This document shows positions 6,876 through 36,114 of a stretch of DNA of 64,000 bases, piece after piece; position 1 is the stretch's first letter; each line of letters begins with the position of its first letter. The notes under the pieces were generated by a model. The model was given only the letters and a program-made list of their open reading frames with translations. It was not told where the DNA came from and did not search any database. The stretch spans positions 76,188 to 140,187 of the forward strand of contig JBEKGJ010000001.1 in NCBI GenBank assembly GCA_050012855.1, written 5' to 3'. Source of the DNA: Verrucomicrobiota bacterium (GTDB lineage Bacteria > Verrucomicrobiota > Verrucomicrobiia > Limisphaerales > J093). The position numbers and the translations under genes are program-made.

Positions 6876-7286
6876 GACGAATGCGGACGAGGCGACCTGG
6901 ACCAGTTTGAACCCCGGGCGCTGGGAGCGACCCGATGCTGGGCGCAAGCGGGAGTGACCGGGCACGTGTGGCCCGGCCGTCCACCACCCGCCAATAGCCC
7001 AATCCGGCAGGCACATGCTGCATCGTCCCCATTTTCTCTTTGAACATGAACGCGGAACGAGAAATTGGGGCTGCGGAGCACCGCCGGCCCTACCAGGTTG
7101 GGCCAGCGGCCGGTTGACGTCGTGGCCCGCTGGTCCACGACCGGCTTCACTGTCTTGGGTAAGCTTTTACCTCGTTTTCTGTAAACTGTTGATAAGCAAT
7201 ATCATTGATTTCAAGGCATGCACTTGCAAAGGCGGGACCGAATTTGATCTTGACGCCAGCTTGCCCCGGAGCATACGCTGGTATTC

Positions 7287-7580
7287 ATGGACACCAGCAC
7301 CCACAGCATTATCCGGGGTTACATCGACAAGCTTTACGCCTTTAAAGACAGCCGTGATGCCGACAGCCATCAGAGGCCGTTGATGGCGGAGATTCAGGTT
7401 GCGATTGCCATAGAGCAGTCGCAGACAGCGGAAAAAATGAAGGAGCAGATCAATACGCTCGTGACTGAGACAGTCAAGCTTACTGGACTAACGAAACACC
7501 TCCGTTGCTTCACCATCGTTCTTGTTGTGTTTGCCCTTATACAGATCGTTATAGCGGTTTTGCCGTACTGCCATTTATGA
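7287..7580 (+). CDS. hypothetical small protein with C-terminal TM helix (lower-GC islet)
   Basis: 97-aa ORF. C-terminal FTIVLVVFALIQIVIAVLPY. Its stop overlaps the next ATG (ATGA at 7577-7580). Confidence 0.4.
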   Translation: MDTSTHSIIRGYIDKLYAFKDSRDADSHQRPLMAEIQVAIAIEQSQTAEKMKEQINTLVTETVKLTGLTKHLRCFTIVLVVFALIQIVIAVLPYCHL

Positions 7581-8029
7581 AATACACTGTATTATTGATT
7601 GTACTCCTGATTGCGGTCACGGGATGCGGAAAGCCCAAACCAAAGAGTACCAGACTACAGCCATATATTGATTTGTGCCAGAATATCCTACTCAGCTTGC
7701 CGCTTCCGCAAGATGCCGAGGTAGATGGAATGCAGAAGACATTTAGCAATTGGTATGAGGCCGTTTCGGCTGCATTTCCAAAAGGCAGTAAGGAATATAA
7801 CACTATTTACCCTGTTGTTGAACAATATATGTCGTACATAGCCTGTGTTAAAATCGGTCGGGAGTCTTTAGCGGATACTGTGCGGATACTGGGTCCCACT
7901 ATGACGGCCGAGGAGTTAAAGCAGAAGAGGGACGAAAGCTACGCCTCAATGTTGCAGCAGTATAATCTAACAAGGGAAAAAGCGAGGGACGCTGCGACGA
8001 TTTTGGAGAAGATTCAATCCGAGGATTAG
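7577..8029 (+). CDS. hypothetical lipoprotein (lower-GC islet)
   Basis: ATG at 7577. Lipobox MKYTVLLIVLLIAVTGC. Translationally coupled to 7287..7580. Confidence 0.55.
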   Translation: MKYTVLLIVLLIAVTGCGKPKPKSTRLQPYIDLCQNILLSLPLPQDAEVDGMQKTFSNWYEAVSAAFPKGSKEYNTIYPVVEQYMSYIACVKIGRESLADTVRILGPTMTAEELKQKRDESYASMLQQYNLTREKARDAATILEKIQSED

Positions 8030-8138
8030 CATTCACGACCAAGCTCAGGCACGCGGGAGGAAAAACCATGAACAACCTGAATCTCAGCGACAAACCCGGA
8101 TCAGCCGTCCCGCGTTGGTTAGGCGACTTACGCGGGAT

Positions 8139-8426
8139 TTAAACGCCATCCTGATCTCCAAGGGGGTCTGCACGCCGGCCTGAAATAGATGGTCTTAGTG
8201 GTGCCTGCTTCAATCTCGCAAGCTCGGCATCAACCGTGTTCTTTTCCGTGCGGAGTCTGGCTACCACTGCCGCATGGTCAGCATCGTTCTTGGCTATGCG
8301 GTCGAGGAGGGAATCATCCGCCTCCAAATGCTGCTGCAAAATGACGAGGTGCGTCCTAATTTCATGCGGTGGTTTGTGGTCAAGAACAAACTGTTCGATT
8401 GCTTTAAGGTGTTCAGTAAGCTTCAT
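8139..8426 (-). CDS. hypothetical small helical protein (lower-GC islet)
   Basis: 95-aa ORF with ATG at 8426, convergent with the lipoprotein gene. No recognisable motif. Confidence 0.4.
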   Translation of the reverse strand: MKLTEHLKAIEQFVLDHKPPHEIRTHLVILQQHLEADDSLLDRIAKNDADHAAVVARLRTEKNTVDAELARLKQAPLRPSISGRRADPLGDQDGV

Positions 8427-8852
8427 AGTTTTGTGTGGGCTAACAGGTCAAGTTCGCTTTCTGCTGTTGTCATATCCGCTCCACCTTGCCGCCCCCCTGA
8501 CACGGTGGCGAGCCTTTTCTGCCCGGGCAGGCACCAACCCAGCCAGACGCCTTTGCGCCGCCTTGACGCCCCCGGACGGGCACAAGAACACGCTTTCCGC
8601 CCAAGGCCAGCAAAGGGGGCAATTTTGCAGGAAATCCGCCCGTGTTATTATTTTTGTTCTTGTTCCGTCTCTATATTCTCGCCGTTTAAGTTGCTGCTTT
8701 TGAATGGGTTAAACATGCTTTAATAATGTAAGTGATTGATTATCAATACTTAATGAGAATAGAAATTCGTTTTTGCTGGTGTTTTTGAGGCAATTCCAAC
8801 TACGGTTGGTAACTGGCAGCCGTAGTCCGGGAACAGTGTCCGGATGGGTCCA

Positions 8853-10367
8853 TCACGAACGCCCCGGCGGGCGCGCGCCTTTCCCGGCACGCTGGGTCAA
8901 CGCGTCGCCCAGTTCGCCGCGCGCCTGTTCCGCCTCGGCCTCGAGGCGGGCAACGACGTCAGCGTGTCCGGCCGCCACATCCGTCGCCTCGGAAATGTCG
9001 CTTTCGAGGTCGTAAAGCTCGGCCCGTTCCAGTTTGCGCTGCTCATAAGGCACGGGCGTTCCACCGCGACCGCCGGGCCGGCCGCCGAGCGTGCTGTAGG
9101 TGTGCGGCAGTTGCAGCTTCCACCGGCCGTCCCCCGTGACCACGGCCTGAAGCTGGTTGTTTTCGTAGTAAAACCAATAGGCGGTGTGCGGGTTCTTCGC
9201 TCCGCGTTGGCCGGAGATGATCGGCCAGACGTCGAGCCCGTCAATCGGGTGGTCGGGCAGCTTCGCCCCGATGAGCTTCGCGATGGTCGGGAACAGGTCA
9301 ATGGTCATGAGCATCTGCCGGGACTCGGTGCCGGCGGGGATTTGGCCCGGCCAGCGCATGATGCACGGCTCGCGCGTGCCGCCCTCCCAGTTGGTGCCCT
9401 TGCCCTCGCGCAACGGATACGCCGACCCCGCGTGCTCGCCGTAGCTCAGCCACGGGCCGTTGTCCGACGTGAAGATGACCCAGGTGTCCTTTTCCACACC
9501 GGCCTTCCGTAACGCTTCGAGGATCTGCCCCACCGACCAGTCAATCTCCTCAATCACGTCGCCGTAAAGGCCGCGCGCCGTTTTGCCGCGGAACTTGTCG
9601 CTCACGTGGAGCGGGACATGCGGCATGTTGTGCGCCACGTACAGGAAAAACGGATGGTCCTTGTTTTGCTCAATGAAGCGGACCGCGCGCTCGGTGTACC
9701 AGGTCGTGAGCTGGTTCTGATCTTCGTGGGTGATTTGCGGGATCACGACCTTCTCGCCCTCGAACATGGTCAGTTCCGGATAGCGTTTGCGCTGCTCGGA
9801 ATCGGGCGGGAGCTTGACCAGGTCCGGATGCAGCGGCCACATGTCGTTGGAGTACGGCAGGCCGAAATACGCATCGAAGCCGTGGCGCGTGGGCAGAAAC
9901 TGCGGCGCGTCGCCGAGGTGCCATTTGCCGAAGATGCCGGTGGCATAGCCACGCTGCTTCACCAACTGCGCCAGGGTCATCTCGCCATCGCCGAGGCCGG
10001 TCCGGGACCGCGGGCTGAGCGCGCCGTGGATGCCGATGCGGTTCGGATAGCAACCCGTCAACAGCCCTGCGCGGGAAGCGGAGCACACCGGTTGGGCCAC
10101 GTGGAAATTGCGGAAGATGCACCCCTCGGCCGCCATGCGGTCGAGGTTCGGCGTAGTGAAACCTTTCGCGCCGAACACGCCCACATCGGCATAGCCCTGG
10201 TCATCGGTGAAAACGATGACGACGTTGGGCCGATGCGCGTCGCGGGCCACGGCGGGGGCGACTGCCGCCCAGGCAACGAGGAGCGCCAGAATGCCACGTC
10301 CCACTGCCCGCAACGTGGCGGGCCGGGCAGACGGGTGCCGTCCACCGACATGATGGCACTTGTTCAT
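8853..10367 (-). CDS. arylsulfatase (type I sulfatase family)
   Basis: ORF 8853..10631 trimmed to the ATG at 10367 (signal ...[16 protein letters not shown]). [15 protein letters not shown], active-site box [17 protein letters not shown]. Confidence 0.9.
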
Positions 10368-12017: not shown

Positions 12018-12211
12018 TCAGGCGGCGCCCCGCGCTCTGGGTTGGGAGTTGACGTGACCCGACCCCAGATCGTGGTGCCGGCTGCACGTGGACTTGGTGC
12101 GTTCAGAATGCCACACGGACGTCACGCGGGAGCGTCACGCATTTGATTTCACAGAGTGGAAGCCGGGCCAAGAAAAGCCGCTCAAGTTCTTGCTGGAGAA
12201 TGTATTCCAAT

Positions 12212-12262
12212 TGGAGCCAGTTGTCGGATTTGAACCGACGACCGACGGTTTACAAATCCGTT
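12212..12262 (-). repeat. orphan 3' half of tRNA-Thr (CCA end to anticodon loop); distal att repeat of the integrase island
   Basis: 12212-12256 is 45/45 identical to 19789-19833 of the intact tRNA. Similarity continues to 12262 with 1 mismatch. Confidence 0.85.
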
Positions 12263-12948
12263 TTTGGCATTTCGCGACGATGACATAAACATGCGTTACA
12301 ACCCTGTATTTACGGCACTAAAACGCACTTTTGGCTCTTGACCCGTTTTGCCCGAAAAGCGCACCGAAACGCACTTTCGATGTTGCAATCTGTTGCAACC
12401 TGCTTCCCGGAAGTTCGCCCTTTCCGCGGCCATTTCCGCCACGGCTCCCAGCATCCGCCAACGCGCTAAATGCCCCCCAGACGCAACGGTGACAAAAACC
12501 GCTGGTGCAACCCTCGCTCGTCTCGAATCGTCGCTCTCCGCCCGCGCCCGTGCGCAGACACCCCCGAGAATTTCACGCCCCCGCCCCGGTGCGGGCGTTT
12601 TCGCTTTCCTTGGGGCACCGTGACGCCGCCCGGCAGGGCTGGGGCTTTTGTGTGTGGTGTCGAGGCGCTTCCTGTTACCCCCGCACATGGGGCAAGGTTG
12701 CCAGGCCACGCTGGCTCACCGACTTGACCCAGTCGGCCACGAACGAGGTTGCCGACGCCGGTTCGCCGTATCCAGTATCCGAGGCAATCGCCGCGGGGCA
12801 TCCGTTGCCGGCGAGCCGAGCAGGGGGCAAAGGTGCCAGGTGTGCGCCAGGAATTATTCGCTCGCAGTCGCCGGCCATTATGCGCTCGACCACTCCACCA
12901 CGCCTCGTTGAGCCGGCGGATGACCATCAGGCCGTTGCCTGCTACCGC

Positions 12949-13749
12949 TCACGGTTCAACTCCTGGTGAATCATCTGGTTTGTCAGAAGATTGCGGAAGA
13001 GTTTCCGAAGCAGCGGTGGAGTCGCCAGCGTCAGCCGGTTGAACCTCGGTTTGTTTAACGGCGCGTTTGTTGTAGTGGATTTTTAGCGGCCCGATTAGCT
13101 CCCTTGCGTCAGGGGTGAACAAATCGTGGATCGCTTGGCCCAAGTCTTCAACATCAATCAGAATTCCCTGTCGCCGCCGAATCTCTTTCCTAATCAAACG
13201 AAGAACATCTTCCGTGAAAACCGCCTTTCCGATGGAGTCCGCGCTCAACGCCGACTGGTGTTCCCAAAATTTCTCAAGCGCTCCGACCTTCACAGAATTG
13301 CGGTGAAGGTAAGCGAGCATCTCAGCAGATTTCTCGATTGTCTCTGGCGCGAGAGACTCGGAAAAGACGGGCACGAAATCAACCCCCTCGTCAACGTCAA
13401 ATGTAAGGTGGTATAATTTCCACTCGACACCGTTTGTCACCAAGACCCACCTCATATTTCCCAACGCTGCGTAAAACTCACCCTGAGCAACATGGCGCTC
13501 GCGCAACTTCTTGCCAGCGGCTTTCACCTCGACGAAGAACTTGATTATTCCGTCAATCTTGATCGCGAGATCAACGTAGTTACACTTCACCTCGAACTCG
13601 CGGGAAATTTCTCCGAGGTCATAACCGAGTACATTCTCGAAAACCTTGACGATACGTTGGAGCGTGTCCGCTTCGCTCAGGTTATTTTGTTGAGCCTCCA
13701 ACAGAAGCGGCCAGTATTTTTTTAACTCGTGGGCGATGTTGATTTTCAT
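12949..13749 (-). CDS. HsdR_N-like PD-(D/E)xK nuclease-fold protein (standalone)
   Basis: ATG at 13749 (alternative at 13758). N-terminal half looks like a type I restriction enzyme R N-terminal domain: ...EADTLQRIVKVFENVLGY..., YVDLAIKIDGIIKFFVEVKA (D...E-x-K), WVLVTNGVEWKLY. GC is lower than its surroundings. Confidence 0.7.
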   Translation of the reverse strand: MKINIAHELKKYWPLLLEAQQNNLSEADTLQRIVKVFENVLGYDLGEISREFEVKCNYVDLAIKIDGIIKFFVEVKAAGKKLRERHVAQGEFYAALGNMRWVLVTNGVEWKLYHLTFDVDEGVDFVPVFSESLAPETIEKSAEMLAYLHRNSVKVGALEKFWEHQSALSADSIGKAVFTEDVLRLIRKEIRRRQGILIDVEDLGQAIHDLFTPDARELIGPLKIHYNKRAVKQTEVQPADAGDSTAASETLPQSSDKPDDSPGVEP

Positions 13750-14071
13750 AAATGCCATCCTACCGGCGGCGCACAGGTGGAGCAATCCCAAAAACGGACT
13801 CGGCTCTCCGGGGGCCGTCGGGGGCGGAGCTTCCGGGCCACGCTGGGGGCAAACTGGTGCGCGGAGTGGTGGCTAACGCGCCCTTGCTCCTTCCCGGCGC
13901 CGGGCCTGGCCATGTCCGCCGGCCGAATCGTGCGGCGTGGGCCGCGCCCGTGCGCAGAGACACCCAAAGGAAAGCCCGCTCGGCCGTGCCCTTGCCATTC
14001 TGAGGCACTGGCGCGGCGGCAAACTCGGGGAGTTCCTGGCGGACTGCGGCAGGATCAAATGTGGACACGCG

Positions 14072-15976
14072 TCACGGCGAGCGGAGGCGGTAGAAACGGG
14101 CGGGAATGTTCGTCCACCGGGGATCGCTGAAATAGGACGAACCGCCGGTCAGCGTGTTGGTTCCGACCGGAACCCATTTGGGATATTGCAGCGAAGTGTT
14201 GGCCTCCACGACGACGACCAGGTTAGTGGTTCCGGTGATGGTGAACCCGAACCGGTTCGTCCGCACGCCGAAACTGGCATCGTCGGTCGGCATCTGCGGG
14301 TTCCATAGCACCGTTGGAAGACCGCCAAACGTTGCGGCCCAGCCCGTGGTCCCCGGCGAATAATAGACGCTCGCGGGGTCACCTGAGAACACACCCGAAC
14401 CAAGGCTGGGGGGGGTTCCCTGGAAATAGACTCCCGTGAGGCTGGTGCACCGCTCGAACGCCTCGCCCCCGATGCTGGTGACGTTGTTGGGGATCGTGAC
14501 GCTGGTCAGGTTGGTGCAGTACCAGAACGCATAATTCCCGATGCTGGTGACGCTGCTGGGGATGATGACGCTGGTCAGGCTCCAGCAGGAGTAAAACGCA
14601 TAGTCCCCGATGGTGGTAACGCTGTTCGGGATCGTGACGCTGGTCAGGCTGGTGCAAGAGTAAAACGCGCTGTCCCCGATGCTAGTGACGCTGTCGGGGA
14701 TCGCGATCCCAGTCAGGCTGTTGCAGCCCTCGAACGCCCCTTCTCCGATGCTGGTGACGCTGTTGCCGAGCGTGATGGTGGTCAGCCTGGTGCAGCCAAG
14801 GAACGCCCAGGCCCCGATGCTGGTGACCGGTAGGCCATTGATCGTGGCAGGGATGGTCACTGCACCGCCGGGACCGGTGCATCCCGTGATGGTGACGGTG
14901 CCGTTCGTGGTCGTGAACTTGTACGGCACTTGCGCCGGCTGGTTCCACAAAACGGCTGGCCGCTCTGCAAAGAACGCCCCCCAGCCTGTCGTCCCCGGCG
15001 AGTAATAGACGGTCGCTTTGTTATCGTTGTAAAACACACCCAAACCAACGCCGGGGGCGTTTCCCTGAAAAAAGACTCCCGTCAGGCTGGCGCAGTTGTA
15101 GAACGCCCAGTCTTCAATGCTGGTGACGCCGTTGCCGATCATGACGCTGGTCAGGCTGGTGCAGCCTTGAAACGCCCCGTACCCGATGCTGGTGACGCCG
15201 TCTCCGATGGTGACGTTGGTCAGGCTGGTGCAGTCGCAAAACGCCTGGCTCCCGATATTGGTGACGCTGTTGGGGATCGTGTAACTTCCGGCTTTGCCTC
15301 CCGGATATTGGATGAGCGTTGTTTGGCTCTTGTCGAACAAGACCCCGTCCAAACTGCTGTAGGCGGAATTGAGCGCATCCACCGTTATCGCGGTCAGTCC
15401 GGTGCAGGAAGAAAACGCCAAATTCCCGATATTGGTGACGCTGATGGGGATCGTGACGTTGGTCAGGCTGATGCACCAGTGGAACGCCACGTCCCCAATG
15501 CTGGTGACGCTGTTCGGGATCGTGGCAACGGTCAGGCTGCGGCAGTCATCGAACGCACCCTCCCCGATGGTGGTGACGCTGTCGGGGATCGTGACGCTTG
15601 TAAGCCCGGCGCTAGCGAACACTTCGTCCCTGATGCTGGTGACGCCGTTGCCGATCGTGACGGTTGTCAGGCTGGTGCAGTCGCAAAACGCCTGGCTCCC
15701 GATATTGGTGACGCTGTTGGGAATCGTGACGCTGGTCACGCTCTGGCAGTAATAGAACGCCCCGCCCCCGATGCTGGTGACCGGCAGGCCATTGACCATG
15801 CTGGGAATGGTCACCGCCCCGCCGGGACCGGTGTATCCACTGATGCTGACCGTCCCGTTATTGACCGTGTAGCCGAACTGGGCTTGCACCGTGGCGGGCA
15901 GCATGAAAAGCAGCACCAGAGGCAGCAACTTCACGGCGCAGGCGGTTCTCAAACTCATGGGAATCTGGCTTTTCAT
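14072..15976 (-). CDS. secreted BspA-type leucine-rich repeat (LRR_5) protein with internal duplication
   Basis: ATG at 15976 with signal MKSQIPMSLRTACAVKLLPLVLLFMLPATVQA. Many ~23-aa LTSVTIPNSVTSIGxxAFxxC units in two blocks, each ending in VYYSPGTTGW. C-terminal ...ARFYRLRSP. Confidence 0.85.
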   Translation of the reverse strand: MKSQIPMSLRTACAVKLLPLVLLFMLPATVQAQFGYTVNNGTVSISGYTGPGGAVTIPSMVNGLPVTSIGGGAFYYCQSVTSVTIPNSVTNIGSQAFCDCTSLTTVTIGNGVTSIRDEVFASAGLTSVTIPDSVTTIGEGAFDDCRSLTVATIPNSVTSIGDVAFHWCISLTNVTIPISVTNIGNLAFSSCTGLTAITVDALNSAYSSLDGVLFDKSQTTLIQYPGGKAGSYTIPNSVTNIGSQAFCDCTSLTNVTIGDGVTSIGYGAFQGCTSLTSVMIGNGVTSIEDWAFYNCASLTGVFFQGNAPGVGLGVFYNDNKATVYYSPGTTGWGAFFAERPAVLWNQPAQVPYKFTTTNGTVTITGCTGPGGAVTIPATINGLPVTSIGAWAFLGCTRLTTITLGNSVTSIGEGAFEGCNSLTGIAIPDSVTSIGDSAFYSCTSLTSVTIPNSVTTIGDYAFYSCWSLTSVIIPSSVTSIGNYAFWYCTNLTSVTIPNNVTSIGGEAFERCTSLTGVYFQGTPPSLGSGVFSGDPASVYYSPGTTGWAATFGGLPTVLWNPQMPTDDASFGVRTNRFGFTITGTTNLVVVVEANTSLQYPKWVPVGTNTLTGGSSYFSDPRWTNIPARFYRLRSP

Positions 15977-16180
15977 ACTTTTGGCAGGGTAGTGACAGGG
16001 TGGCAGTGGAACAAGGAAAAACCAGGCTCGAAACACCGTGCCGCGACGTGTGTGCGACCGCACTCGTCCGCTCAACCGTCCATTGTGTCACGCCAACCGT
16101 GCCATAAACTGCGATGCTGGCCGGGGACGCCAGGAAAGCCGTCTGTTGCCCCGGCTGGGCTTCGATGGTGACGGCCCGGC

Positions 16181-16726
16181 TCACGGCGCCGGCCTGTTCC
16201 GGGCGGTTTCGAGCAGCCGTTCCATGCTGTGCAGTTCGTCAAGTGTCATTCGCTTGAGGACCTCCTCGTCGCTGACCGTCACGTCGAATTGCAGCACCTC
16301 GGATCGAATGGGGCCGCCGTTCGCGCCTTCAATGGCCATGCGGTTCGGCTCTTCCAGACCAAGCAAGCGGTCTTTGTATTTGCAGGCCGTCATTTTCTCG
16401 GATGCGGTGGATCTCGGGTCGTTGATGATGCGCTCATAGGTGGCGAGTGAGTCACACCGGAAGTCTTCCTTTGAACGGCGCAAGCGTTCAAACATGACGG
16501 CTCTCGCGCGAGCCACAATTCTGTCAACGGTGCGCCAGTGGCAGTGCCATTTCGCGGTCAACATGCGGCGCAGTTCGCACTTGTGAAGGTTCTGACGGGC
16601 GGACAGGACGCGCACACACTCGGCAACCCGCTGGTCCACGAGCCAGTCCGGCGAGCGCCGGCCGCGGCCGACCTTGGGCTTGGCCGGGTCACGGGTAGGG
16701 ATGCCCTTTATGCGCGGGGGTTTCAT
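16181..16726 (-). CDS. hypothetical phage/island protein
   Basis: 181-aa ORF with ATG at 16726 overlapping the upstream stop (ATGA). No motif recognised. Confidence 0.5.
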   Translation of the reverse strand: MKPPRIKGIPTRDPAKPKVGRGRRSPDWLVDQRVAECVRVLSARQNLHKCELRRMLTAKWHCHWRTVDRIVARARAVMFERLRRSKEDFRCDSLATYERIINDPRSTASEKMTACKYKDRLLGLEEPNRMAIEGANGGPIRSEVLQFDVTVSDEEVLKRMTLDELHSMERLLETARNRPAP

Positions 16727-17268
16727 TGCACGTGACCACGGGATTGACGAGGATCCTTCCCGTCACGCTTGATCGTGCGGGCACTCACCCCGGTTTCCTT
16801 CGCCACCTGCTCGGCCGTGGATATTGGCTCATGTTGACCCAATTTCGTTCCAGCAGGTTTTCCCACCGCCTTCTTCCGCCGGTTGTATATCCGGCCGCGC
16901 AAGACGCTTGCCTGATCAGACGTCAGGTTGCGCCGGCCAAGCTGGTTCGCGTCAACCCAGTCCATCGCCGCGTCTTCGTCCGGCAGCTTGATCGCCACCG
17001 CACTCACGCCGGTTTTCCACGCCACAATCCCAGTTGTGGCCCGCAGAGCGCGATTGCTCGGCGGTAGGACAACGGCTGGAAACGACACCACTCCCTGATT
17101 CCAAGGAGTGGCACGCTTCTGCGAACGCGGTTGCCCGTCGTTCAGGAATCCGTTTGGTTTCCGCATACCATTTTCTTGCCCTGCCGCTGCTGGCGAGTTG
17201 CGGTCATCCTGTAAACTCAACAGGCAAGATTCTCCGGGCTTTCGCCCAATGACGGTCGTGGCTATCAA
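16723..17268 (-). CDS. DNA-binding protein with ParB/KorB-like C-terminal HTH (start uncertain)
   Basis: NQLGRRNLTSDQASVLRGRIYN ... STAEQVAKETGVSARTIKRDGK. This pattern is common in phage/plasmid HTH proteins. Confidence 0.55.
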   Translation of the reverse strand: MIATTVIGRKPGESCLLSLQDDRNSPAAAGQENGMRKPNGFLNDGQPRSQKRATPWNQGVVSFPAVVLPPSNRALRATTGIVAWKTGVSAVAIKLPDEDAAMDWVDANQLGRRNLTSDQASVLRGRIYNRRKKAVGKPAGTKLGQHEPISTAEQVAKETGVSARTIKRDGKDPRQSRGHVQ

Positions 17269-17452
17269 TTACGATATACACCTACGCCACCCCGGCTACT
17301 GGGCGGACTCTCCAGTGGAGTTCATCCTTGCCCAAGTTCCGCTGAAGTTTCCTCCAGTCGCTGTGTTTTTTGCGAGTTCGGCACGCCCTTTTTCAGGAAC
17401 GTCATGTCGGCCTTTCGGCCACTTGTTTCCGTCTAACTCGGCGCCGTTTGCA

Positions 17453-17818
17453 TCAGCTTTCGGCGCTATTATCCGTGCTCTCCATCCCCACGGCGGGGCC
17501 GTTACGACGCGTGCCGTAACGTTGCTTTACCCAAGCCCTGACCTCCGCCAAATCGAACCGAACCGCACGCTTCGAGAGCGCGCAGTAGGGCATTCCGGCC
17601 GCCATGAAATTGTCAACGCTGCGCCGGCTCATTCCAAGTAGCTCGGCAACGTCGTTTTTGTTCCCAAAGGGCGGTAGGGCACCCGATGCCTGTTGCCTGA
17701 CTGGTGCTGAGGCGAGCAGTTGCGTGTCGTTTGCGGTCTCTTTCACGCGGTCACAATGCACCAATGACCAGTCTGATTCTGCGACAAAAAGCGGCGGGGG
17801 TCGGTGTCGCAAAATCAC
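17453..17818 (-). CDS. excisionase/AlpA-type HTH_17 DNA-binding protein
   Basis: NDVAELLGMSRRSVDNFMAAGMPYCALSKRAVRFDLAEVRAWV. GTG start at 17818 overlaps the upstream stop (GTGA). Confidence 0.65.
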   Translation of the reverse strand: MILRHRPPPLFVAESDWSLVHCDRVKETANDTQLLASAPVRQQASGALPPFGNKNDVAELLGMSRRSVDNFMAAGMPYCALSKRAVRFDLAEVRAWVKQRYGTRRNGPAVGMESTDNSAES

Positions 17819-18438
17819 GCGAAGAGAAGTCTTCCAAACCTCTTCTCCACGAACTTCAGGCGGCCTGTCGGGATTCTGACCAACCCGTGTCGCTCAATCG
17901 CTTTTTCAAGCGTGCGGCTGTCTTTGCCTGGTTCTGAGTTCACGTTCCCTGTCTTGGTCCATTTGAAGAGCTTCACCAGCACCGGGGTCGTTAGGCAGCA
18001 CAGTGGCGGCCAGCATTCGCCGTTAATGCAGAGGCTCCTGCACCATCCATCCACAATGCACGGAACAGTGTGGTCCATGTGTTTCCAATCGGGAAGAACA
18101 GTGCGTTTGTCTGGGGACGCGAGCGCTCTGCCAAGTCTGATCAGGAACTGGTTTAGCCGCCGTTCTGATTCGGAGTCTTCCGCCATCCAAAGGGCACGGA
18201 GGAAGCCCTGTAAGCCCCGCACACCACGGGCACTACCCGCAGCTTCCACTTGAACCAGTAACATTCGCTCAACGTCGATCTCAATGTCCCCAAGCCTCGC
18301 TCCGCCATGCGCCTTTGTTGGTCTCCATCGTCTGCCCTTGACGATCAGCAGTCGCATTGCGTGCTTCTGGCTTTCGATGCACTCCATCGGAATGTCGAAG
18401 GGCGGCAACTCATTAAGGGGCAATGGCTTCTTCTTCAT
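17815..18438 (-). CDS. hypothetical island protein
   Basis: ORF 17815..18651 trimmed to the ATG at 18438 (MKKKPLPLNELPP...), which overlaps the integrase stop (ATGA). Confidence 0.5.
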   Translation of the reverse strand: MKKKPLPLNELPPFDIPMECIESQKHAMRLLIVKGRRWRPTKAHGGARLGDIEIDVERMLLVQVEAAGSARGVRGLQGFLRALWMAEDSESERRLNQFLIRLGRALASPDKRTVLPDWKHMDHTVPCIVDGWCRSLCINGECWPPLCCLTTPVLVKLFKWTKTGNVNSEPGKDSRTLEKAIERHGLVRIPTGRLKFVEKRFGRLLFA

Positions 18439-19700
18439 ACAGCCTCCTCGGCCGGCAATGTCACGACGTTGGTCGCGGTTGCGGGTGTGATGGCGAACCA
18501 CCGTTCCGCCGCGGCGGGCTTCACAAGCTCGCGGTAGTGGCGATGCACTACGGCGGCGCTGTTGCCCAGTTCGCCCGCCACGCGCCCGGCGTCGCCCGTC
18601 ACTGCAAAGCGATAGCTGGCGTAGGAGTGTCGCAAGGCGTTCGGCTTCCACGCCACCCCCGCCGCGCTCCCGGTCGTTTGCTGGGCGTCGTAAAACTCAT
18701 CATGCGTGCCCGGCCACACCTTGCCCCGTTGCGCGGCGTAGGGTGCCAGCCATGCGGCCAGATTGTCCGCAATGGGCACCACGCGCCGGCTGGCCGTCTT
18801 GGCCTTGTCCGCCCCGATGGTGATGTTACGGCCGGCCAGGTCCACGTCTTCCCAGTCCACCCGCTCGATTTCGGCGGAGCGGAGTCCGGCAAACGCGCCC
18901 AGTGCCACACAGGGCAGAAACTCCGGGTCCGCGGCGGCCAGGAGCTTGGCGATTTCCGCGGGCGTATAGATCGCCACGTCGTGGTCCGGCACTTTGAGGT
19001 TCTCCACTCCTTCAACCGGGTTGTCCACGGCATAGCCACGCGCCACCGCGAACGCAAAGAAGGCGTGCAACACCCGGCGGAAGTTCGTGTAGCTCTGCGG
19101 GGCCAACTTCTGGACATCGAGCCAGGCTTGGATCTCCGCCGTGGTGACGTTCACCGTGTCCTTGTGGAAGGCGTCGGCGAACCGGCCCAACCGGAAACGG
19201 AGGTCTTGCAGGTAGCGGGCTGAGGCGCGGCGGTGCTCCTTGATCGCCAGAAACTCAGTCACGGCGTCGGCCACGGGCTGGCGCGTGGTCTGCTTGTGGC
19301 GGTCGGCGTAGAACTTGGCGGCGGCGTGGAGATTCGGGAGGTCACCGACCAGCTTCAAACACTCCGCCACCGTGCCGGCAGTCGCGGGCAGGGAAAGGTC
19401 GAACGGGGCCAGCGTTTGGACCGCGGAGGCATAGTCGGCCGCCTGCTCGTTGGTCATGGAAGCAGCCACGACTTCGCGCTCGCTCAACTGCCGGGCGAGC
19501 CGCTGGGCGGCTTCCAACGCTTCGGCTTCGTCGGCGTAGGAGTCAAACCGGCGCTTGCCTTGGGCGTAGTTCGCCACCATGAAGGCATGATTGCCGAGGG
19601 GCGTCCGGCGGCGATAGACAGTGACGGTGACGCGGCCGAGGCTGATTTTACGGGGCCAGTGGGCCGCTGCGGCGGGTTTTCGTGATGCGTGCAACACCAT
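18435..19700 (-). CDS. int: tyrosine-type site-specific integrase
   Basis: 421 aa. C-terminal catalytic signature ...GLRSAEI..., LRHSYASYRF, VHRHYRELV (R..HxxR..Y). Starts 88 nt from the tRNA 3' end. Confidence 0.9.
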   Translation of the reverse strand: MVLHASRKPAAAAHWPRKISLGRVTVTVYRRRTPLGNHAFMVANYAQGKRRFDSYADEAEALEAAQRLARQLSEREVVAASMTNEQAADYASAVQTLAPFDLSLPATAGTVAECLKLVGDLPNLHAAAKFYADRHKQTTRQPVADAVTEFLAIKEHRRASARYLQDLRFRLGRFADAFHKDTVNVTTAEIQAWLDVQKLAPQSYTNFRRVLHAFFAFAVARGYAVDNPVEGVENLKVPDHDVAIYTPAEIAKLLAAADPEFLPCVALGAFAGLRSAEIERVDWEDVDLAGRNITIGADKAKTASRRVVPIADNLAAWLAPYAAQRGKVWPGTHDEFYDAQQTTGSAAGVAWKPNALRHSYASYRFAVTGDAGRVAGELGNSAAVVHRHYRELVKPAAAERWFAITPATATNVVTLPAEEAV

Positions 19701-19788
19701 GCGTGAACTGTTGCACTATCGTTGCAACTTTGCAAGTAAAATTGATTTCCGCAGCGTGGGTTTTGTGTGTAAGTCGTTGGTGGTAAAC

Positions 19789-19863
19789 TGGAGCCAGTTG
19801 TCGGATTTGAACCGACGACCGACGGTTTACAAAACCGTTGCTCTACCACTGAGCTAAACTGGC
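19789..19863 (-). tRNA. tRNA-Thr (anticodon UGU), 75 nt with encoded CCA
   Basis: Manual cloverleaf: acceptor GCCAGTT/AACTGGC, D arm GCTC-AGTGGTA-GAGC, anticodon arm ACGGT-TTTGTAA-ACCGT, T arm GTCGG-TTCAAAT-CCGAC, then T-CCA. Confidence 0.95.
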
Positions 19864-19890
19864 TGCCATCCGACCCGGCGGACCGGCCCA

Positions 19891-20103
19891 CTATGCGGCC
19901 GCCATCACCGCAACGCAATTTCTTTCCGGGTTGCAAAGAGTTCGGAAACCCAGAGGCAGGCCAGCCAGCCGTCGGACGAGTTCCTGGACCGCCACGGCCC
20001 CCTTGCGGTAGAGGACCACCGCCAGCAGCTTGCCGTCGGTCTTGACGTTCCAGAAACGGCCTTCCTTTTTGATCGCAACTTCCGTGATGACAGGTTGTTG
20101 CAT
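19891..20103 (-). CDS. hypothetical small protein
   Basis: 70-aa ORF (EVAIKKEGRFWNVKTDGKLLAVVLYRKGAVAVQELVRRL). Its last ~19 codons lie inside the duplicated tRNA-upstream segment, so the real extent is uncertain. Confidence 0.3.
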   Translation of the reverse strand: MQQPVITEVAIKKEGRFWNVKTDGKLLAVVLYRKGAVAVQELVRRLAGLPLGFRTLCNPERNCVAVMAAA

Positions 20104-20281
20104 GACCCGCTGTTATATCAACGGAAGGGGACTTGAACACAAAAATGTTTACAGAGCCAAAACGCGACTTGCTCGCGGAGTACACGCGGGAGCAGGCTGC
20201 CCTTAAACGCCGGCGAGCGCTGTTGTCGAGACCGCTATTTCCTTGTTCCACTTGTACTCCCTCACTACACTGCCCAACAGT

Positions 20282-20590
20282 ATGAAAAGCCAGATTCCCA
20301 CCAGTTTAAAGGCCGCCTGGACCGCAAGAATCCTGCCGCTGCTGCTGTTGTTGGCAGTGCCCGCCGCGGTACAAGCCCAGTTTCTCTACACAACCAACAA
20401 CGGAACGGTCACGATCAGTCAGTACACCGGGTCTGGCGGGACGGTGATCATCCCGGACATGATCGAGGGCCTACCGGTCACCAGCATCGGGACCTTTGCG
20501 TTCGGGAACTGCGCAGGCCTGACCAGCGTCACAATTCCCAACAGCGTTGTCACTATCGCCGACAGCGCCGACTTGCGAGCGGGTCGGTGA
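20282..20590 (+). pseudogene. truncated N-terminal fragment of a BspA-type LRR gene (paralog of 14072..15976)
   Basis: MKSQIPTSLKAAWTARILPLLLLLAVPAAVQAQFLYTTNNGTVTISQYTGSGGTVIIPDMIEGLPVTSIG... parallels the full-length protein, then leaves the repeat frame and stops after ~100 aa. About 50 nt of 5' leader is also conserved between the two copies. Confidence 0.7.
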
Positions 20591-20609
20591 TTGATCGCCC
20601 CCAAAAGCT

Positions 20610-21734
20610 ATGGAACGTATCGCCCCCAGCAGTTCGCTCGGAAAACTCCTCGACTGGTGCCGGCAGCAGGCGGCGACCGATCTGCACGCCCAAGCGGACC
20701 GGCGTTACGCCTTCCGGATGGACGGCAAGCTCCAGCGCATCCCGCCCGAACAATTCGCGGTGCCCACGAACGACGACATAGTGAAAATGCTGCGAGAGGC
20801 GTTCTCCAGCTCCATTTGTGACCGCATCGAAAAGCAACACGAGATGGACCTGAGCTTCTTATGCGACCGGTTGCGCTATCGCGCCAATTTCAGCAAGCAA
20901 CAGGGCGCCCAGTCTTTCTCCTTCCGCGTGGTGCCGCAACGCATCCCCAAACTGGACGATCTCCAGTTGCCGGCGACGGTGGCGGACTTGGTCAACGAAC
21001 CGCGCGGGCTGTTGCTGGTCACCGGCGCGGCCGGCCAAGGCAAGAGCACGACGGCCTGCGCGCTGCTCCAACGGCTCAACGAGGCGCTGGCCCTGCGCAT
21101 CATCACCATCGAAGATCCCATCGAATACCTCTTCATCGAAGATCAATGCCAGTTCGAGCAACGGGAGGTGGGCGTGGACACGGCCAGCTTCGCCGAGGCC
21201 ATTCGCAATGCGGTGAGGCAGGACCCCGAAGTCATCTTCATCGGAGAGATCCGGGATCGGGATACCGTCCAGACGGCCATGCTGGCCGCCGAGACCGGGC
21301 ATCTGGTGCTGGCCACGCTCCACGCCGATTCCGTGCCGCAGACCCTCGATCGCATCCGCGAGCTTCATCCCGCTTCGGAGCAGGCCAACGCCAGCACGCT
21401 GCTGGCCCGGAGCGTGAACGCCATCATCTGCCAGCGGTTGGTCCCGAGCACACTTGACAAGCGAATTCCCTGTCTGGAGATTATGCGGCGCACCACCGCC
21501 ACCCAGGAGGCCATCGCCCGGAACGATCTGCATCTGCTGAGCGGCATCATCGAGGCCTCCGTGAATGAAGGAATGCAAAGCTTCGATCAGCACCTGATGC
21601 AACTCTTCAAGCAGGGATCCGTGACCTTGGAAACCGCCCGGTATTACGCGAGCAACTGGAACCGGCTGGAGATGGAAATGCACGGCTACACGTCTTCCGT
21701 GCCTGGCATCCTCAAGCCTGACCGCGAACGATAA
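20610..21734 (+). CDS. pilT: PilT/PilU-family type IV pilus retraction-type ATPase (orphan)
   Basis: Walker A TGAAGQGKST, Asp box IITIEDPIEY, Walker B VIFIGEIRD, His box TGHLVLATLHA. Confidence 0.85.
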   Translation: MERIAPSSSLGKLLDWCRQQAATDLHAQADRRYAFRMDGKLQRIPPEQFAVPTNDDIVKMLREAFSSSICDRIEKQHEMDLSFLCDRLRYRANFSKQQGAQSFSFRVVPQRIPKLDDLQLPATVADLVNEPRGLLLVTGAAGQGKSTTACALLQRLNEALALRIITIEDPIEYLFIEDQCQFEQREVGVDTASFAEAIRNAVRQDPEVIFIGEIRDRDTVQTAMLAAETGHLVLATLHADSVPQTLDRIRELHPASEQANASTLLARSVNAIICQRLVPSTLDKRIPCLEIMRRTTATQEAIARNDLHLLSGIIEASVNEGMQSFDQHLMQLFKQGSVTLETARYYASNWNRLEMEMHGYTSSVPGILKPDRER

Positions 21735-22111
21735 GGTTGCCAGCAACGCAGCCTTCCCCTAAACAAGGGCGCCGAAGGGGGCCGCTACTCGTCGCACGCC
21801 GGGCCGGCCGCGTCAAAGTAGATTCCTTGCCCCGGGCCACCGGCCCCGCCCGGAGGGACACCGTCACGCGCGGGGCAACGCTGCCACGGTTGTCGCGGTG
21901 CTGTTGGTTTTACCAGCCCTTGGACGGGGCAATCCCAAACCGCGGCGTCGCCAACCCCCCTTTATCGCCCGATTTTGTCACCCGGTCGCCCACGGTGGGA
22001 CTTTTCGGGACGTTTCCTGACGGCATTCACCGAGGCGAAACTTGAGGGGAGCCCTATACGGGACGGTTGCAGGCGACTGGCGACGGTCCAAGGCGAAAGC
22101 CTGTCCCAAGC

Positions 22112-22231
22112 TTACAAAACCGTTGCTCTACCACTGAGCTAAATTGGCTGCCATCCGACCCGGCGGACCCGCCCACTATGCGGCCGCCGTCACCGCAGCG
22201 CAATTTTTTTCCGGGTTCCGAAGAGTTCGGA
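22112..22231 (-). repeat. orphan 5' half of tRNA-Thr plus ~84 nt of its upstream flank (duplicate of 19827-19946)
   Basis: 120-nt ungapped manual alignment to 19827-19946 with 7 mismatches. It starts in the anticodon loop (TTACAAA). Confidence 0.85.
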
Positions 22232-22870
22232 CCAGACGTGGTCACGATCCCGGGGGGAAATCGTCGGAGAGCTACAGGCCGAGGGGCGTCCAGCGCTGAC
22301 CGACACGCTGGCGCAGTGGGTGGCGGGGCGTTATGCCTTGGCGACGCGGCAGGTGGTCCAGGCCCGGGAAACGGAAGGCTGGCAGGTGTTGCGCGAATTG
22401 TGCGCGGACATCGTCGAGTTGCGCCGGGGCGGTCACTACGCGGAGCGGTTGCGACTGGAGCGCGACTAGTTGGACTTCAAGCGGCAACGGGAGGGCCATA
22501 AGACGGTGGAGGTGCTGCCATCGGTGGAAATGGTCTGAGTGGAACCGAGCTTTTTGCCAAACGAACCCAAGTTGGGGCCGGCCGCGGAGCCACCCGAATG
22601 TTCGTTCCATCATCGGAGGCGGGAGTTTCGGCGGGCTGCCGAAATCGGGATGCGGGACGCGGGCGCTCCGCCCCCCATCCGACCACCCGCATTAAAAAGT
22701 AGTCATTGTTATTATTTCTATCAATGCTGCGAATGTTGAAACAAATTTGGCCCCCGCCGGGTATGAAGGTTGTCGCGGGGGCCAGGACGGTTCCGCCGCG
22801 ACCCCGGTGGCGGGAGCGCCCCGGGCGATCAGGCAAGGTCGCGGACGACCCGGGACCGGCCAGGACAACG

Positions 22871-32363: not shown

Positions 32364-33072
32364 GCTCGATTGATCCCAGGCTCGCTCACGAAAGCAACGC
32401 TTTTTGCGCGTGTTTCTTGCGCGCGCCCATGAGCCTTTGGCAGCAAAAGAAGCCTCCCGTTCCTTTCGGACCTGATCACGGACTATGAACCGATGCAAAA
32501 GCGCGGGCTTCTCCCTCTCCGCCTTGGGGAGAGGGCCAGGGTGAGGTGCTTCTGCCCGTCGCCCCCCAGACAGCGCGGACGCAAACATCGGCAAGCACAA
32601 ACAGAACATCGTCTTTACAAACTGCTTGAGCGGTTCTCGCTGCGGCCCACTGCATTTCACCATTCCTCGCTGGCGACCGGGACACTCCATGCGCGCGCCG
32701 CGTGCCAGTGAAGCCGCGTGAGCGGTGAGCGGTGGACAGTCGTTCCGTCATCCGGCAATCCGGCGTGTCGCCACGGGACGCTGGGGGCTGAATCCAGAAT
32801 CGAGCCGCCACAAGCCGCCACAGAAAGCACAATGGGTTTCAGGCGACGGGTGCCAGTGAGCACAGACCGCGAGAGGCTGGTTACTGCGGTCGGCAGGCCG
32901 GGCGCCACCGTTTCGCCTGGGGCACGGCCCCATGAACTGCGTCCCCTGCGGGCGAGCGTGGCCTGTCCGTGAACACAGCCCGGCGACGGCAACATGCCAA
33001 AATCAAGAGCTCCGTCGTAAAAAGCACCATACTACGGACCGCCCCTTCATGCACCAAAAGTCAGGCCGATAA

Positions 33073-33681
33073 TCAGCAAACAGAACAAGAAGCCACTGAA
33101 CTCAGCGATGACATAAGGAAGAGGCCGGAACGCCGTAACGAACTCTCGCGCTGTGTAGCGTGCCCGCTGCATAGAAAAGCGGACTTCGCGTCCGGAGGGT
33201 TCGATGGCTGAAGACCGGCACCTGCCACCCACCTCGTCAGGAGAATGTAGATGTCGAGAAGTGAAACGACCCCGGAAGCATAAACCGAAAAGCGACCACA
33301 CATCTTGTCCAGAACAACGGCATTAAAACCAACGACCGCTGCAGTGAACCAAAACTGCTCGTCTCGGTAGTTTGAATGGGTTTCGCTCACGATGTGGGTC
33401 GAGTATGGCTAACTCCAACGCTGAGGCGCAGCCGCCAGAACAACCGAAAGGACAACCATAAAACAAAACCAAACGAATGCGGACAGGCTGGCGGCTGTTG
33501 CCTCCAGAACCTTGTTAGCCATCAACATACCACCCAGAACAAATACGACTTGGGTTGAGGACTTGTTGTGGCGGGAAGAAAACACCGTAAACGCAACTTT
33601 GCCCCTCTCATGTAGAGAATTTTTGCTTTTACTAGATCGTCCGGCGATAATGGTTCTGGCGGCCAGAACTCCCCAGCGCAT
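33073..33681 (-). pseudogene. cassette-3 membrane-protein ORF interrupted by a single in-frame TAG
   Basis: ORFs 33409..33681 and 33073..33390 are in the same frame, separated only by the TAG at 33409-33411 plus 6 codons. Both parts are rich in hydrophobic helices (SAFVWFCFMVVLSVVLAAA; FWFTAAVVGFNAVVL; VVSLLDIYILL). Confidence 0.4.
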
Positions 33682-33837
33682 CGCTCGCTATCATACGATG
33701 CTGGTCCGATGGAAAGACAGTGGTGCTCGTGATCCAGAATCATTACTTCTTCCGTGGTATCCTGAGATTTGGAAGCGGTCCTATCTGGCAACTCTTGATT
33801 GTCTGTGTGCATATTTTGAAGTGGATGCGGCGTTAAA

Positions 33838-33939
33838 GTCTAACGCAAAGGTCAGCGACGGGAGCCGGCCGCCGATGATTTTCGATTTGTCCTGCAAGCT
33901 GAGCGGCTGGCTCCCGTTCGCTGGACCGAATTGTTGAAC
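33838..33939 (-). repeat. attC site 2 (102 nt)
   Basis: Read on the minus strand: R'' GTTCAAC (fits RYYYAAC), 8 nt after the cassette stop. Arms ACGGGAGCCAGCCGC / GCGGCCGGCTCCCGT, with unpaired extra bases in the outer stem. R' GTTAGAC (fits GTTRRRY). Confidence 0.75.
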
Positions 33940-33946
33940 GCATTCT

Positions 33947-35614: not shown

Positions 35615-35640
35615 GACGCGCGAAACTCTCTGTTCTTATC

Positions 35641-35742
35641 GTCCGACGTTCAGCATCAGCGGCGGGAGCCAGCCGCCACTGACGCACGGATCGGGATTGA
35701 CCTGAACGGCTGGCGCCCATCCGCTGAATGCTGTGGTTGGAG
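35641..35742 (-). repeat. attC site 1 (102 nt, core degenerate)
   Basis: Same length as attC2, with homologous arms (CAGCGGATGGGCGCCAGCCG / CGGCTGGCTCCCGCCGCTG). R'' is CTCCAAC. R' is GTCGGAC (T-to-C change in the GTT core). Confidence 0.6.
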
Positions 35743-35775
35743 CTCATGATGGAGGCGTCCCTTCTTCGGCGCCTG

Positions 35776-36114
35776 CTAGGGTCCGTCGAGGACGAAGTCG
35801 CAGCCCGAGACAGCATCGCTCGCCTCGGCCTTGCGGATTAGCTCCACCTGGCCCTGATCCAGCGAATCGACACCTTGGGCCAATAACACCCTCTCGGCTG
35901 ACGTCTGGCCCAAGCCGCCGAGATTCTCCGCCGGCGCCACTGGCACCCTGGGATCGTAAACGAGCTTGAGGACATAACGCCCGTCTTGGCGGGGCAGCGA
36001 GGCTTCCATATATCCGGCTGAGATGTCACCCTCGTCGTTCTTGACGGCTAGCCGTTTGTGGTGAAGGCCCTCGCGTTGGAGGGTCGGATGTTTCACGTAA
36101 TGGAGCGTGTTCAT
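35776..36114 (-). CDS. hypothetical protein, first integron cassette
   Basis: 112-aa ORF with ATG at 36114, 23 nt after the candidate attI crossover. No motif recognised. Confidence 0.5.
   Translation of the reverse strand: MNTLHYVKHPTLQREGLHHKRLAVKNDEGDISAGYMEASLPRQDGRYVLKLVYDPRVPVAPAENLGGLGQTSAERVLLAQGVDSLDQGQVELIRKAEASDAVSGCDFVLDGP

Follow-up and report, generated by a model that had tools for sequence, protein, structure and literature searches.

We analysed a 64,000-nt window of contig JBEKGJ010000001.1, in which a single tRNA-Thr(UGU) gene lies between its own two displaced halves. The source strain is a soil/peat Verrucomicrobium near Limisphaerales-type metagenome-assembled genomes. 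On one side of the gene sits a tyrosine-integrase island (12257-19826) and on the other a 2,165-bp segment (19947-22111, below called X); the locus is a 3'-type island plus a 5'-side, integrase-less insertion at one crossover, known here as a single clonal case. Coordinates are positions in the window, by which we mean the whole stretch of DNA analysed, and tRNA reads are given in minus-strand (tRNA) orientation. The tRNA-derived features, including the attachment (att) sites of the island, are listed below; L007 is the corresponding locus of the closest species representative.

12212-12256, minus strand: orphan 3' half of tRNA-Thr (copy (a)), the island attR; core TTACAAA at 12250-12256, then the 3' half to CCA, both half-sites retained.
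19789-19863, minus strand: working tRNA-Thr(UGU) gene, the attL; core 19827-19833, 3' half island-supplied, 5' half from repeat copy (b).
19864-19946, minus strand: promoter-side copy (b), 84 nt; A-tract and TTGCGT-17 nt-CATAGT, 94% identical to 22148-22231, same motif at the same distance in L007.
22112-22147, minus strand: orphan 5' half of tRNA-Thr; whole anticodon loop (22112-22118) and G5>A; complete gene in L007 at the same position relative to ORF93/OEP.
22148-22231, minus strand: promoter-side copy (c); A-tract and TTGCGC-17 nt-CATAGT retained, now directed into X, antisense to pilT.

The tRNA-Thr gene and its partial copies

The gene at 19789-19863 is the sole tRNA detected in the window by ARAGORN and Rfam (Rfam tRNA model 75.8 bits; cloverleaf fold z = -4.0), and an Rfam scan of 11.5-23.5 kb returns no other family. 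Copy (a) matches 19789-19833 exactly over 45 nt, from the anticodon loop through CCA, and the repeat finder extends this pair to 12209-12262 against 19786-19839 (52/54 identical). Copy (c), at 22112-22231, matches 19827-19946 at 113 of 120 positions (94%) and comprises the 5' half together with the 84 nt upstream of it. Copies (a), (b) and (c) overlap in TTACAAA alone (plus strand), which is the 7-nt anticodon loop TTTGTAA. Repeat finding and alignment thereby bear out the original prediction, made from the letters of the window alone, that three tRNA-Thr-derived segments share nothing but this loop; (a) and (c) are indeed exactly complementary halves that each retain it. The mismatch claimed for copy (c) is also real in the alignment (G5>A, GCCAATT versus GCCAGTT), and A5 would mispair with C68. 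The stem-loop-stem motif ACGGTTTACAAAACCGT is found at (a) and (b) with at most one mismatch, against an average of 0.03 matches in dinucleotide shuffles.

In both repeat copies and in L007 an A-tract and TTGCGN-17 nt-CATAGT occur at equal distance from the tRNA start, and we predict that they form the tRNA promoter. A strict sigma-70 scan detected no promoter; the conserved motif came from reading the alignment instead. The displaced promoter copy (c), if active, points through the orphan 5' half into X (22147-21735, minus strand) and runs antisense to pilT. No terminator-like site was found when the stretch between it and pilT was searched for one.

Contigs of three independent assemblies (JGI 3300039307, ENA ERZ27250124 and JGI 3300017998) match the window at 100% wherever they cover the locus, and two of the three cover all of it. 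Because these independent assemblies agree to the base, the structure of the locus is real and fixed in a clonal population, which is seen in about 60 samples. The same arrangement is present on every contig read for four locus proteins, and exact-protein look-ups of window proteins gave nothing but this clonal arrangement (P0152 had no record).

The island between the 3' half and the intact gene

The region 12257-19826 is a canonical 7.6-kb tyrosine-integrase island of the 3' type with anticodon-loop sublocation. One end is formed by an intact tDNA; the cognate 3' fragment lies downstream on the same strand at the other. Its components are the following.

12257-12948, no strand: non-coding distal (P) arm, about 690 nt; arm-type direct repeats TGTTGCAAT and TGTTGCAAC at 12381-12399.
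12949-13791, minus strand: 280-aa cargo protein with an HSDR_N_2 (restriction-enzyme N-terminal-like) domain; Pfam PF13588, E = 2e-8; weak PADLOC type IIG match.
14072-16075, minus strand: BspA-type leucine-rich-repeat (LRR) cargo protein with 69-bp periodic repeats; Pfam LRR_5, E = 5e-139; repeat family D1; homologous LRR genes in sibling islands.
16181-17025, minus strand: two small island open reading frames (ORFs) of 181 aa and 100 aa, both with gene calls on identical contigs; no significant family match.
17453-17746, minus strand: 97-aa helix-turn-helix (HTH) protein, candidate excisionase or regulator; weak HTH_17 (9e-5) and Phage_AlpA (3.5e-4) matches, both under gathering cut-offs.
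17815-18438, minus strand: 207-aa island ORF overlapping the integrase stop; gene call on identical contigs, no family match.
18435-19700, minus strand: tyrosine integrase, 421 aa; Pfam Phage_integrase PF00589, 30.1 bits against a cut-off of 27.1; Xer and integron recombinase models also match.
19701-19788, no strand: proximal (P') arm; arm-type repeats 19709-19717 and 19720-19728, then a 47-nt spacer unique to this island.

The integrase translation shows the catalytic motifs GLRSAE, NALRH and HRHY. In tRNA orientation, with slashes marking the edges of the loop, attL reads ACGGT/TTTGTAA/ACCGT and attR reads ACGGA/TTTGTAA/ACCGT, so inverted half-sites stand on both sides of the loop. The exact arm motif TGTTGCAMY has four matches in the 64 kb, three of them in the two island arms. 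Gene callers applied to identical metagenome contigs call no gene in the distal arm.

Sibling islands are present in the sister genome GCA_936414465.1 (locus L178) and in other metagenomes (L181-L183). Their integrases are 88-93% identical to the one in the window, and their P and P' arms are homologous to those of the window island, the same repeats included. The distal arm is 82-86% identical to those of the siblings (L181 20844-21154, L178 21038-21192), with homology stopping at the core. Homology in the P' arm reaches 19741 and then ends; the same motif pair occurs in L181 at 9968-9995. The 97-aa HTH protein has a 33% identical homologue at the same position in the sibling islands. The original prediction had called copies (a) and (b) with the adjacent integrase a textbook island, and the sibling homology, which ends exactly at the crossover, agrees with this. 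As to variable presence, the siblings in sister genomes occupy another tRNA and the tRNA-Thr of L007 is also accompanied by an integrase; no empty site or circle junction was recovered among the loci searched.

As to the cargo, gene callers give the island LRR gene (repeats at 14388-15891) as 323 aa or 634 aa on identical DNA, and its longest ORF is 667 aa; given this disagreement, annotations of that gene are unreliable. Searches of the small island ORFs, of the 430-bp flank to the right of copy (c) and of the 22143-22469 frame against Pfam, NCBIfam and PADLOC returned nothing convincing.

Target switch within the island family

The sibling islands are inserted in the anticodon loop of tRNA-Ser(GCU), flanked by an 82-nt direct repeat. 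Where L181 reads ...GAAATGCCGGAAACGGA/TTGCTAA/ACCGTTG, the window reads ...GAAATGCCAAAAACGGA/TTTGTAA/ACCGTCG, and the homology ends at the loop; this stop fixes the boundary of the island. The comparison also shows that the target tRNA has switched within the island family, tRNA-Ser(GCU) versus tRNA-Thr(UGU), two tRNAs that share the anticodon stem. The regions compared were L178 9825-21258 and L181 9825-21220 with window 12245-12555 and 18512-19741. Both targets have the common stem CGGT/ACCG and differ at two loop positions. The exchanged parts are the attP core, the tRNA 3' half and a spacer of about 50 nt, which makes this a clean example of a switch in att specificity. A 43% identical integrase adjoins tRNA-Gly(UCC) in another Verrucomicrobial genome (L052 1302-2104), indicating that the wider integrase family uses several tRNA targets. 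The Ser(GCU)/Thr(UGU) pair is the most useful by-product of the analysis, being a concrete case for how near-identical integrases change their target tRNA.

Content and origin of segment X

Homology and family searches identify X as a 2,165-bp patchwork of gene stumps, not a second element. It comprises the following parts, where J1, J2 and J4 denote junctions.

19947-20103, minus strand: 5' stump of a small ORF, about 51 codons; full-length relatives have 81-108 aa; cut at J1 (19946/19947), with homologues aligning to residues 1-51 only.
20226-20566, plus strand: start of a BspA-LRR gene (5' untranslated region and some 95 codons), cut off at J2 (about 20560-20570).
20567-20609, plus strand: last 28 nt of a grpE paralogue (grpE2) and a 15-nt spacer before pilT; homology to the grpE-pilT locus of the sister genome (L091 1398-2565) begins here.
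20610-21734, plus strand: intact PilT/PilU-family (type IVa pilus) ATPase gene; TIGR01420, 340.4 bits against a cut-off of 319.1; Pfam T2SSE, E = 1e-43.
21735-22111, no strand: non-coding 377 nt adjoining the crossover; ends at J4 (22111/22112); no gene call on identical contigs.

The LRR fragment and the PilT-like ATPase proposed for this segment are therefore both real according to the family searches. The second (tandem) element that had been proposed along with them does not hold up: no integrase or recombinase was matched among the ORFs of X (small-ORF stump, LRR stump and pilT), no arm-type or shared repeats were found inside it, its junction with (c) lacks a 3'-side half-site, and it consists of truncated genes plus a host pilT.

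The small-ORF family is rare, with 9 clusters in 5.8 billion proteins. The LRR stump matches the 5' end of the island LRR gene at 75-77% nucleotide identity and lies inverted relative to it (repeats I1 and I6). At the amino acid level it is 62-64% identical to the N-terminal parts of the LRR proteins encoded by this island and by its siblings, which are its nearest relatives among the sequences compared. A variant of it, P0149 (8 of 102 residues different), carries the same LRR-grpE2 fusion tail, so that the patchwork predates some strain divergence.

The pilT gene has more than 7,800 homologues, many of them 70-91% identical. Relative to pilT of the sister genome it shows 99% amino acid and about 95% nucleotide identity, with homology ending at the stop codon. 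The synonymous divergence (dS) from that gene is 0.21 and the ratio of non-synonymous to synonymous divergence (dN/dS) is 0.027, while neighbouring core genes have dS = 0.17-0.18. With dS near that of core genes and a low dN/dS, pilT has diverged like a vertically inherited, continuously functional gene, and it looks like the host lineage's own working orthologue. The contig signature of the strain (about 33-38 contigs) is seen in no other pilT, intact grpE2 or intact small ORF, and X probably holds the strain's only pilT copy. The sister genome retains pilT in a grpE2-pilT arrangement; other relatives have hsp20/DUF748-pilT-dnaJ.

This PilT/PilU-family ATPase is kept at 70-91% identity across many Verrucomicrobiota (L087 9303-12176, L089 8520-12174, L091 799-2565). 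Its context there is chaperone-like and not one of pilus genes: a grpE paralogue, hsp20 or DUF748 lies upstream and a DnaJ/CbpA-like gene downstream. The 377 nt at 21735-22111 match no fetched locus and no Rfam family. We also considered whether the right end of X is a decayed tRNA 3' half, which would make copy (c) a full pseudogene; this was rejected, as local alignment is no better than for shuffles or genomic chunks.

Ancestral position of the tRNA gene

Comparison with relatives indicates that copy (c) marks the ancestral tRNA position and is the displaced original 5' half. L007 (OEP 77% identical at the amino acid level) has a complete, equally oriented tRNA-Thr(UGU) gene 816 bp upstream of OEP, next to the same pair ORF93-OEP; an integrase starts on the other side of this tRNA, and nothing resembling X lies between. 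The promoter-side segment of copy (c) is probably the original one. L007 as an outgroup for the ancestral repeat copy has too few informative sites to decide between the two. The original prediction had itself raised the possibility that 19864-22231 is ancestral, syntenic chromosome; we examined this, and 19864-22111 is not ancestral there.

A scan of the genome collection with the OEP protein finds tRNA-Thr beside OEP in L007 only, and the metagenome scan with the same protein gave distant relatives (<=53% identity) and one partial identical match, with no empty site. In viral-contig scans the promoter/tRNA pattern was unmatched and integrase relatives reached <=35% identity only.

From window position 22662 on, the sister genome is 92% identical in nucleotides, and its OEP locus is without a tRNA-Thr. 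OEP is preceded there by a LAM55 pectate-lyase-like gene and by two ORFs for DDE transposases (L174 5152-9229 versus window 22662). The sister genome has lost the tRNA-Thr arrangement at OEP, and in this clade the DNA upstream of OEP is a hotspot of rearrangement. Cluster contig counts suggest that in the window strain the LAM55 orthologue is retained at another place, on contigs some 61 kb long.

The outer junction and a proposed two-event explanation

The junction at copy (c) reads ACGGT/TTTGTAA/GCTTG, with GCTTG where attB has ACCGT, so that the 3'-side half-site is absent; allowing 3 mismatches still gives no match of the att stem-loop-stem motif at this junction. The repeat stops at 22112, precisely at the base where loop and stem meet, and (a) and (c) overlap by exactly the 7-nt loop. 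Where a tyrosine integrase uses the anticodon loop as overlap, cleavage is expected at two positions, of which this loop/stem boundary is one (general principle in PMC8371274). Beyond the two 120-nt repeat copies the sequences are unrelated, and X itself is not duplicated. An insert that ends at an integrase cleavage boundary, without the half-site and without arm sites, points to an integrase-dependent exchange or to break repair with a non-att partner. Since the outer site lacks one half-site, X is locked in.

The explanation we favour, and to which we give an even chance of being right, holds that two events took place at one 7-bp crossover, namely normal integration of the island and an aberrant insertion, dependent on the integrase, which brought a replacement promoter and 5' half. 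The data on the island show the first event to be a standard integration. By this route 12257-19826 entered through an attP carrying the loop and the tRNA 3' half, and with such an attP the 3' half of the working gene is island-supplied; the original 3' half was displaced to 12212-12256. The second event, as we infer it, inserted 2,285 bp on the promoter side, namely the 2,165 bp of X and a second copy of the promoter and 5' half. It would have been a crossover or break repair between the loop site and a non-att partner, dependent on the integrase yet aberrant. Through the new copy the gene would have become transcribed again; its former promoter and 5' half, displaced to 22112-22231, would be decaying. 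The outcome would be a chimeric working gene, with both ancestral halves remaining as orphans at the outer borders. The 120-nt repeat spans the 5' half and the conserved promoter-like motif, which we take as the part of the insert that restored function. The 7 differences in 120 between copies (b) and (c) are compatible both with an old in-situ duplication in this lineage and with DNA taken up from a close relative.

Several observations weigh against this explanation. No empty site, excised circle or intermediate was found, all contigs of the strain being identical, and in no relative is the left flank seen beside an unoccupied tRNA-Thr. The origin of the second promoter/5'-half copy, with its 7/120 differences, is left unexplained. 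Both the small ORF, of a rare family, and the island-type LRR stump have the appearance of mobile-element remnants, which favours a decayed 5'-type island. Finally, the absent half-site argues against a true att site in a suggestive rather than decisive way, as integrase core sites can be degenerate.

Alternative explanations

One alternative survives best, although we consider it doubtful: X may be what is left of a 5'-type ('reverse-orientation') element whose attP had the tRNA-Thr promoter and 5' half, whose integrase and most genes were deleted, and which carried pilT as cargo. The geometry is an accepted one, since a 5' fragment upstream of an intact tDNA in the same orientation occurs in 159/3919 Islander islands, and the block of identity consists of the 5' half and the conserved promoter-like motif and nothing more. 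The accessory ORF family with its 9 clusters in 5.8 billion proteins lies in the left part of X, and the LRR stump is nearest, among the sequences compared, to the LRR genes of this island family. X has, however, neither an integrase nor arm-type repeats, GCTTG stands in place of ACCGT beside the displaced 5' half, the synonymous divergence of pilT is host-like in what is apparently the strain's only copy, and no related 5'-type element is present in any fetched locus.

It might also be argued that the locus is the fossil of a change in attachment sequence, in which the island integrase recombined with a partner that was not an att site, taking up host DNA (with the lineage's only pilT) and, along with it, the promoter and 5' half of a tRNA gene. 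We regard this as unlikely; the 88-93% identical integrases that switch between tRNA-Ser(GCU) and tRNA-Thr(UGU) can be cited for it. If it were true, every functional part of the tRNA gene would now be supplied by insertion.

A single nested integration is, we think, less likely than the two-event explanation, and quite unlikely on the whole. Here a composite circle corresponding to 12257-22111 (island, complete tRNA-Thr with promoter, and X) would have split an intact tRNA-Thr into (c) and (a). The circle would have formed in a close relative, where the integrase recombined attR with a secondary site upstream of the tRNA, and would have integrated via the resulting hybrid site. The exact complementarity of (a) and (c), both keeping the 7-nt loop, is what one crossover is expected to give, and the difference of about 6% between (b) and (c) is compatible with a donor of a related lineage. 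Moreover, sibling islands with nearly identical integrases sit in a different tRNA, and the family has captured host tRNA flanks before. The composite site would nevertheless have the form P-arm/loop/GCTTG, lacking one half-site and lying 2.4 kb from the P' arm repeats, and two successive secondary-site reactions of low efficiency would be needed. A foreign donor would additionally require loss of the native pilT copy, as the present one looks vertical and single-copy, and the diverged P0149 shares the LRR-grpE2 fusion, so that the patchwork is older than a recent transfer.

Very unlikely is an origin without the integrase, by local duplication or illegitimate rearrangement (for instance a tandem duplication followed by replacement) that ended at the anticodon loop by chance. 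J1 and J2 are ordinary illegitimate joins inside genes, and the site is an OEP-proximal hotspot, where the sister genome carries transposases and another gene. The boundary is nonetheless the loop/stem boundary used by the resident island, which a random end in a region of about 150 nt would hit with an estimated frequency of a few per cent at most; X is also not duplicated, and the sequences past the repeat copies are unrelated.

That contigs were mis-joined at the repeated tRNA segments is hardly credible: metagenome-type assemblies and repeats within the locus would allow it, but the three independent assemblies came from different assemblers and are 100% identical over the parts covered, and the repeats (45 nt exact; 120 nt at 94%) do not reach the length of the final k-mer (141, to go by the ENA contig names).

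Relation to known systems

Williams reportedly set out in 2002, according to papers that cite this work, the islands of tRNA genes and their sublocation classes. Islander-type genomic islands occupy tRNA genes by means of tyrosine integrases, in part with anticodon-loop ('A') sublocation (Hudson et al. 2015, PMC4383910). The unit at 12212-19863 resembles this class in having its integrase beside the regenerated tRNA and, at the opposite end, the displaced 3' fragment with unchanged orientation, in using the 7-nt anticodon loop as overlap and the stem as inverted core sites, and in its arm-type repeats. It differs in nothing essential: the cargo is small (LRR and HSDR_N proteins), the host is a Verrucomicrobium, and it is known here from sequence alone. 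The left unit is therefore a further member of a well-known island class, whereas the whole locus is unusual in layout and built from known processes.

Islands of the 5' type ('reverse orientation') in tRNA and tmRNA genes are said, in a paper citing it, to be the subject of work by Zhao and Williams (2002, J Bacteriol 184:859). In the passages of PMC8371274 and PMC6563490 that deal with them, 5'-type islands are represented by pTN3-like archaeal elements and are found 'seldom' in bacteria. Among Islander islands a 5' tDNA fragment is recorded for 159 of 3919. The view that copy (c) is unusual because elements normally duplicate the 3' part thus stands as far as the layout is concerned, but 5' fragments are less exotic than it implied. 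The locus shares with 5'-type islands the displaced 5' fragment upstream of an intact gene and inserted DNA that supplies the 5' half and the predicted promoter. Unlike them, X has no integrase and no arm sites, the junction of the displaced fragment lacks one core half-site, and the content is truncated genes plus a host housekeeping gene; X also shares its tRNA and crossover with a conventional 3'-type island.

Two further processes are comparable. In phage lambda, secondary-site recombination and aberrant excision yield specialised transducing genomes (gal/bio), and this is an accepted route by which an attP gains new tRNA sequence. By analogy, host DNA by an att site may here have been joined to element-associated sequence through a non-canonical partner; such a partner would explain a crossover junction without a proper core site. 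Unlike in lambda there is no phage, the product is fixed in the chromosome, and what was captured sits on the promoter side, accompanied by a 120-bp duplication. Cis-mobilisable elements (CIMEs) are integrase-less, att-flanked elements beside an integrative and conjugative element (ICE), as in ICESt1/ICESt3 of Streptococcus thermophilus. X is similar to such CIME/ICE accretions as an integrase-less segment with att-related repeat borders, next to an integrase-bearing element at the same target. CIMEs, however, lie on the side of the ICE, between repeated 3' att copies, and retain functional att sites, whereas X lies on the 5' side with an outer site that lacks one half-site and without arm repeats; X is thus not a CIME.

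The locus reveals no new kind of system, but it is of practical relevance. Tools for island mapping take tRNA genes as landmarks and assume one regenerated gene and one displaced fragment. With one gene flanked by both displaced halves, such software would miss the integrase-less 5'-side interval or call all 10 kb one island. The locus also indicates that host DNA which is not mobile can gather at an integrase crossover site, here with a conserved pilT of which the strain probably has no other copy, and that a tRNA gene may become wholly rebuilt from inserted parts.

Other observations in the window

The 430 bp between copy (c) and the conserved ORF93 (22232-22661) have no counterpart in L007 or in the sister genome; an open frame within them ends ...ELRRGGHYAERLRLERD and has no family match. 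The start-less frame pointed out earlier at 22143-22466 is indeed open, but it crosses the repeat and matches no family, and we gave it no weight.

Against a background G+C of about 0.63-0.67, values of 0.50-0.59 are observed at 33001-36000 and 7001-9000. These low-G+C stretches may be further acquired segments. The first of them contains the gene for a 555-aa protein with HATPase_c and KTSC domains (33947-35614).

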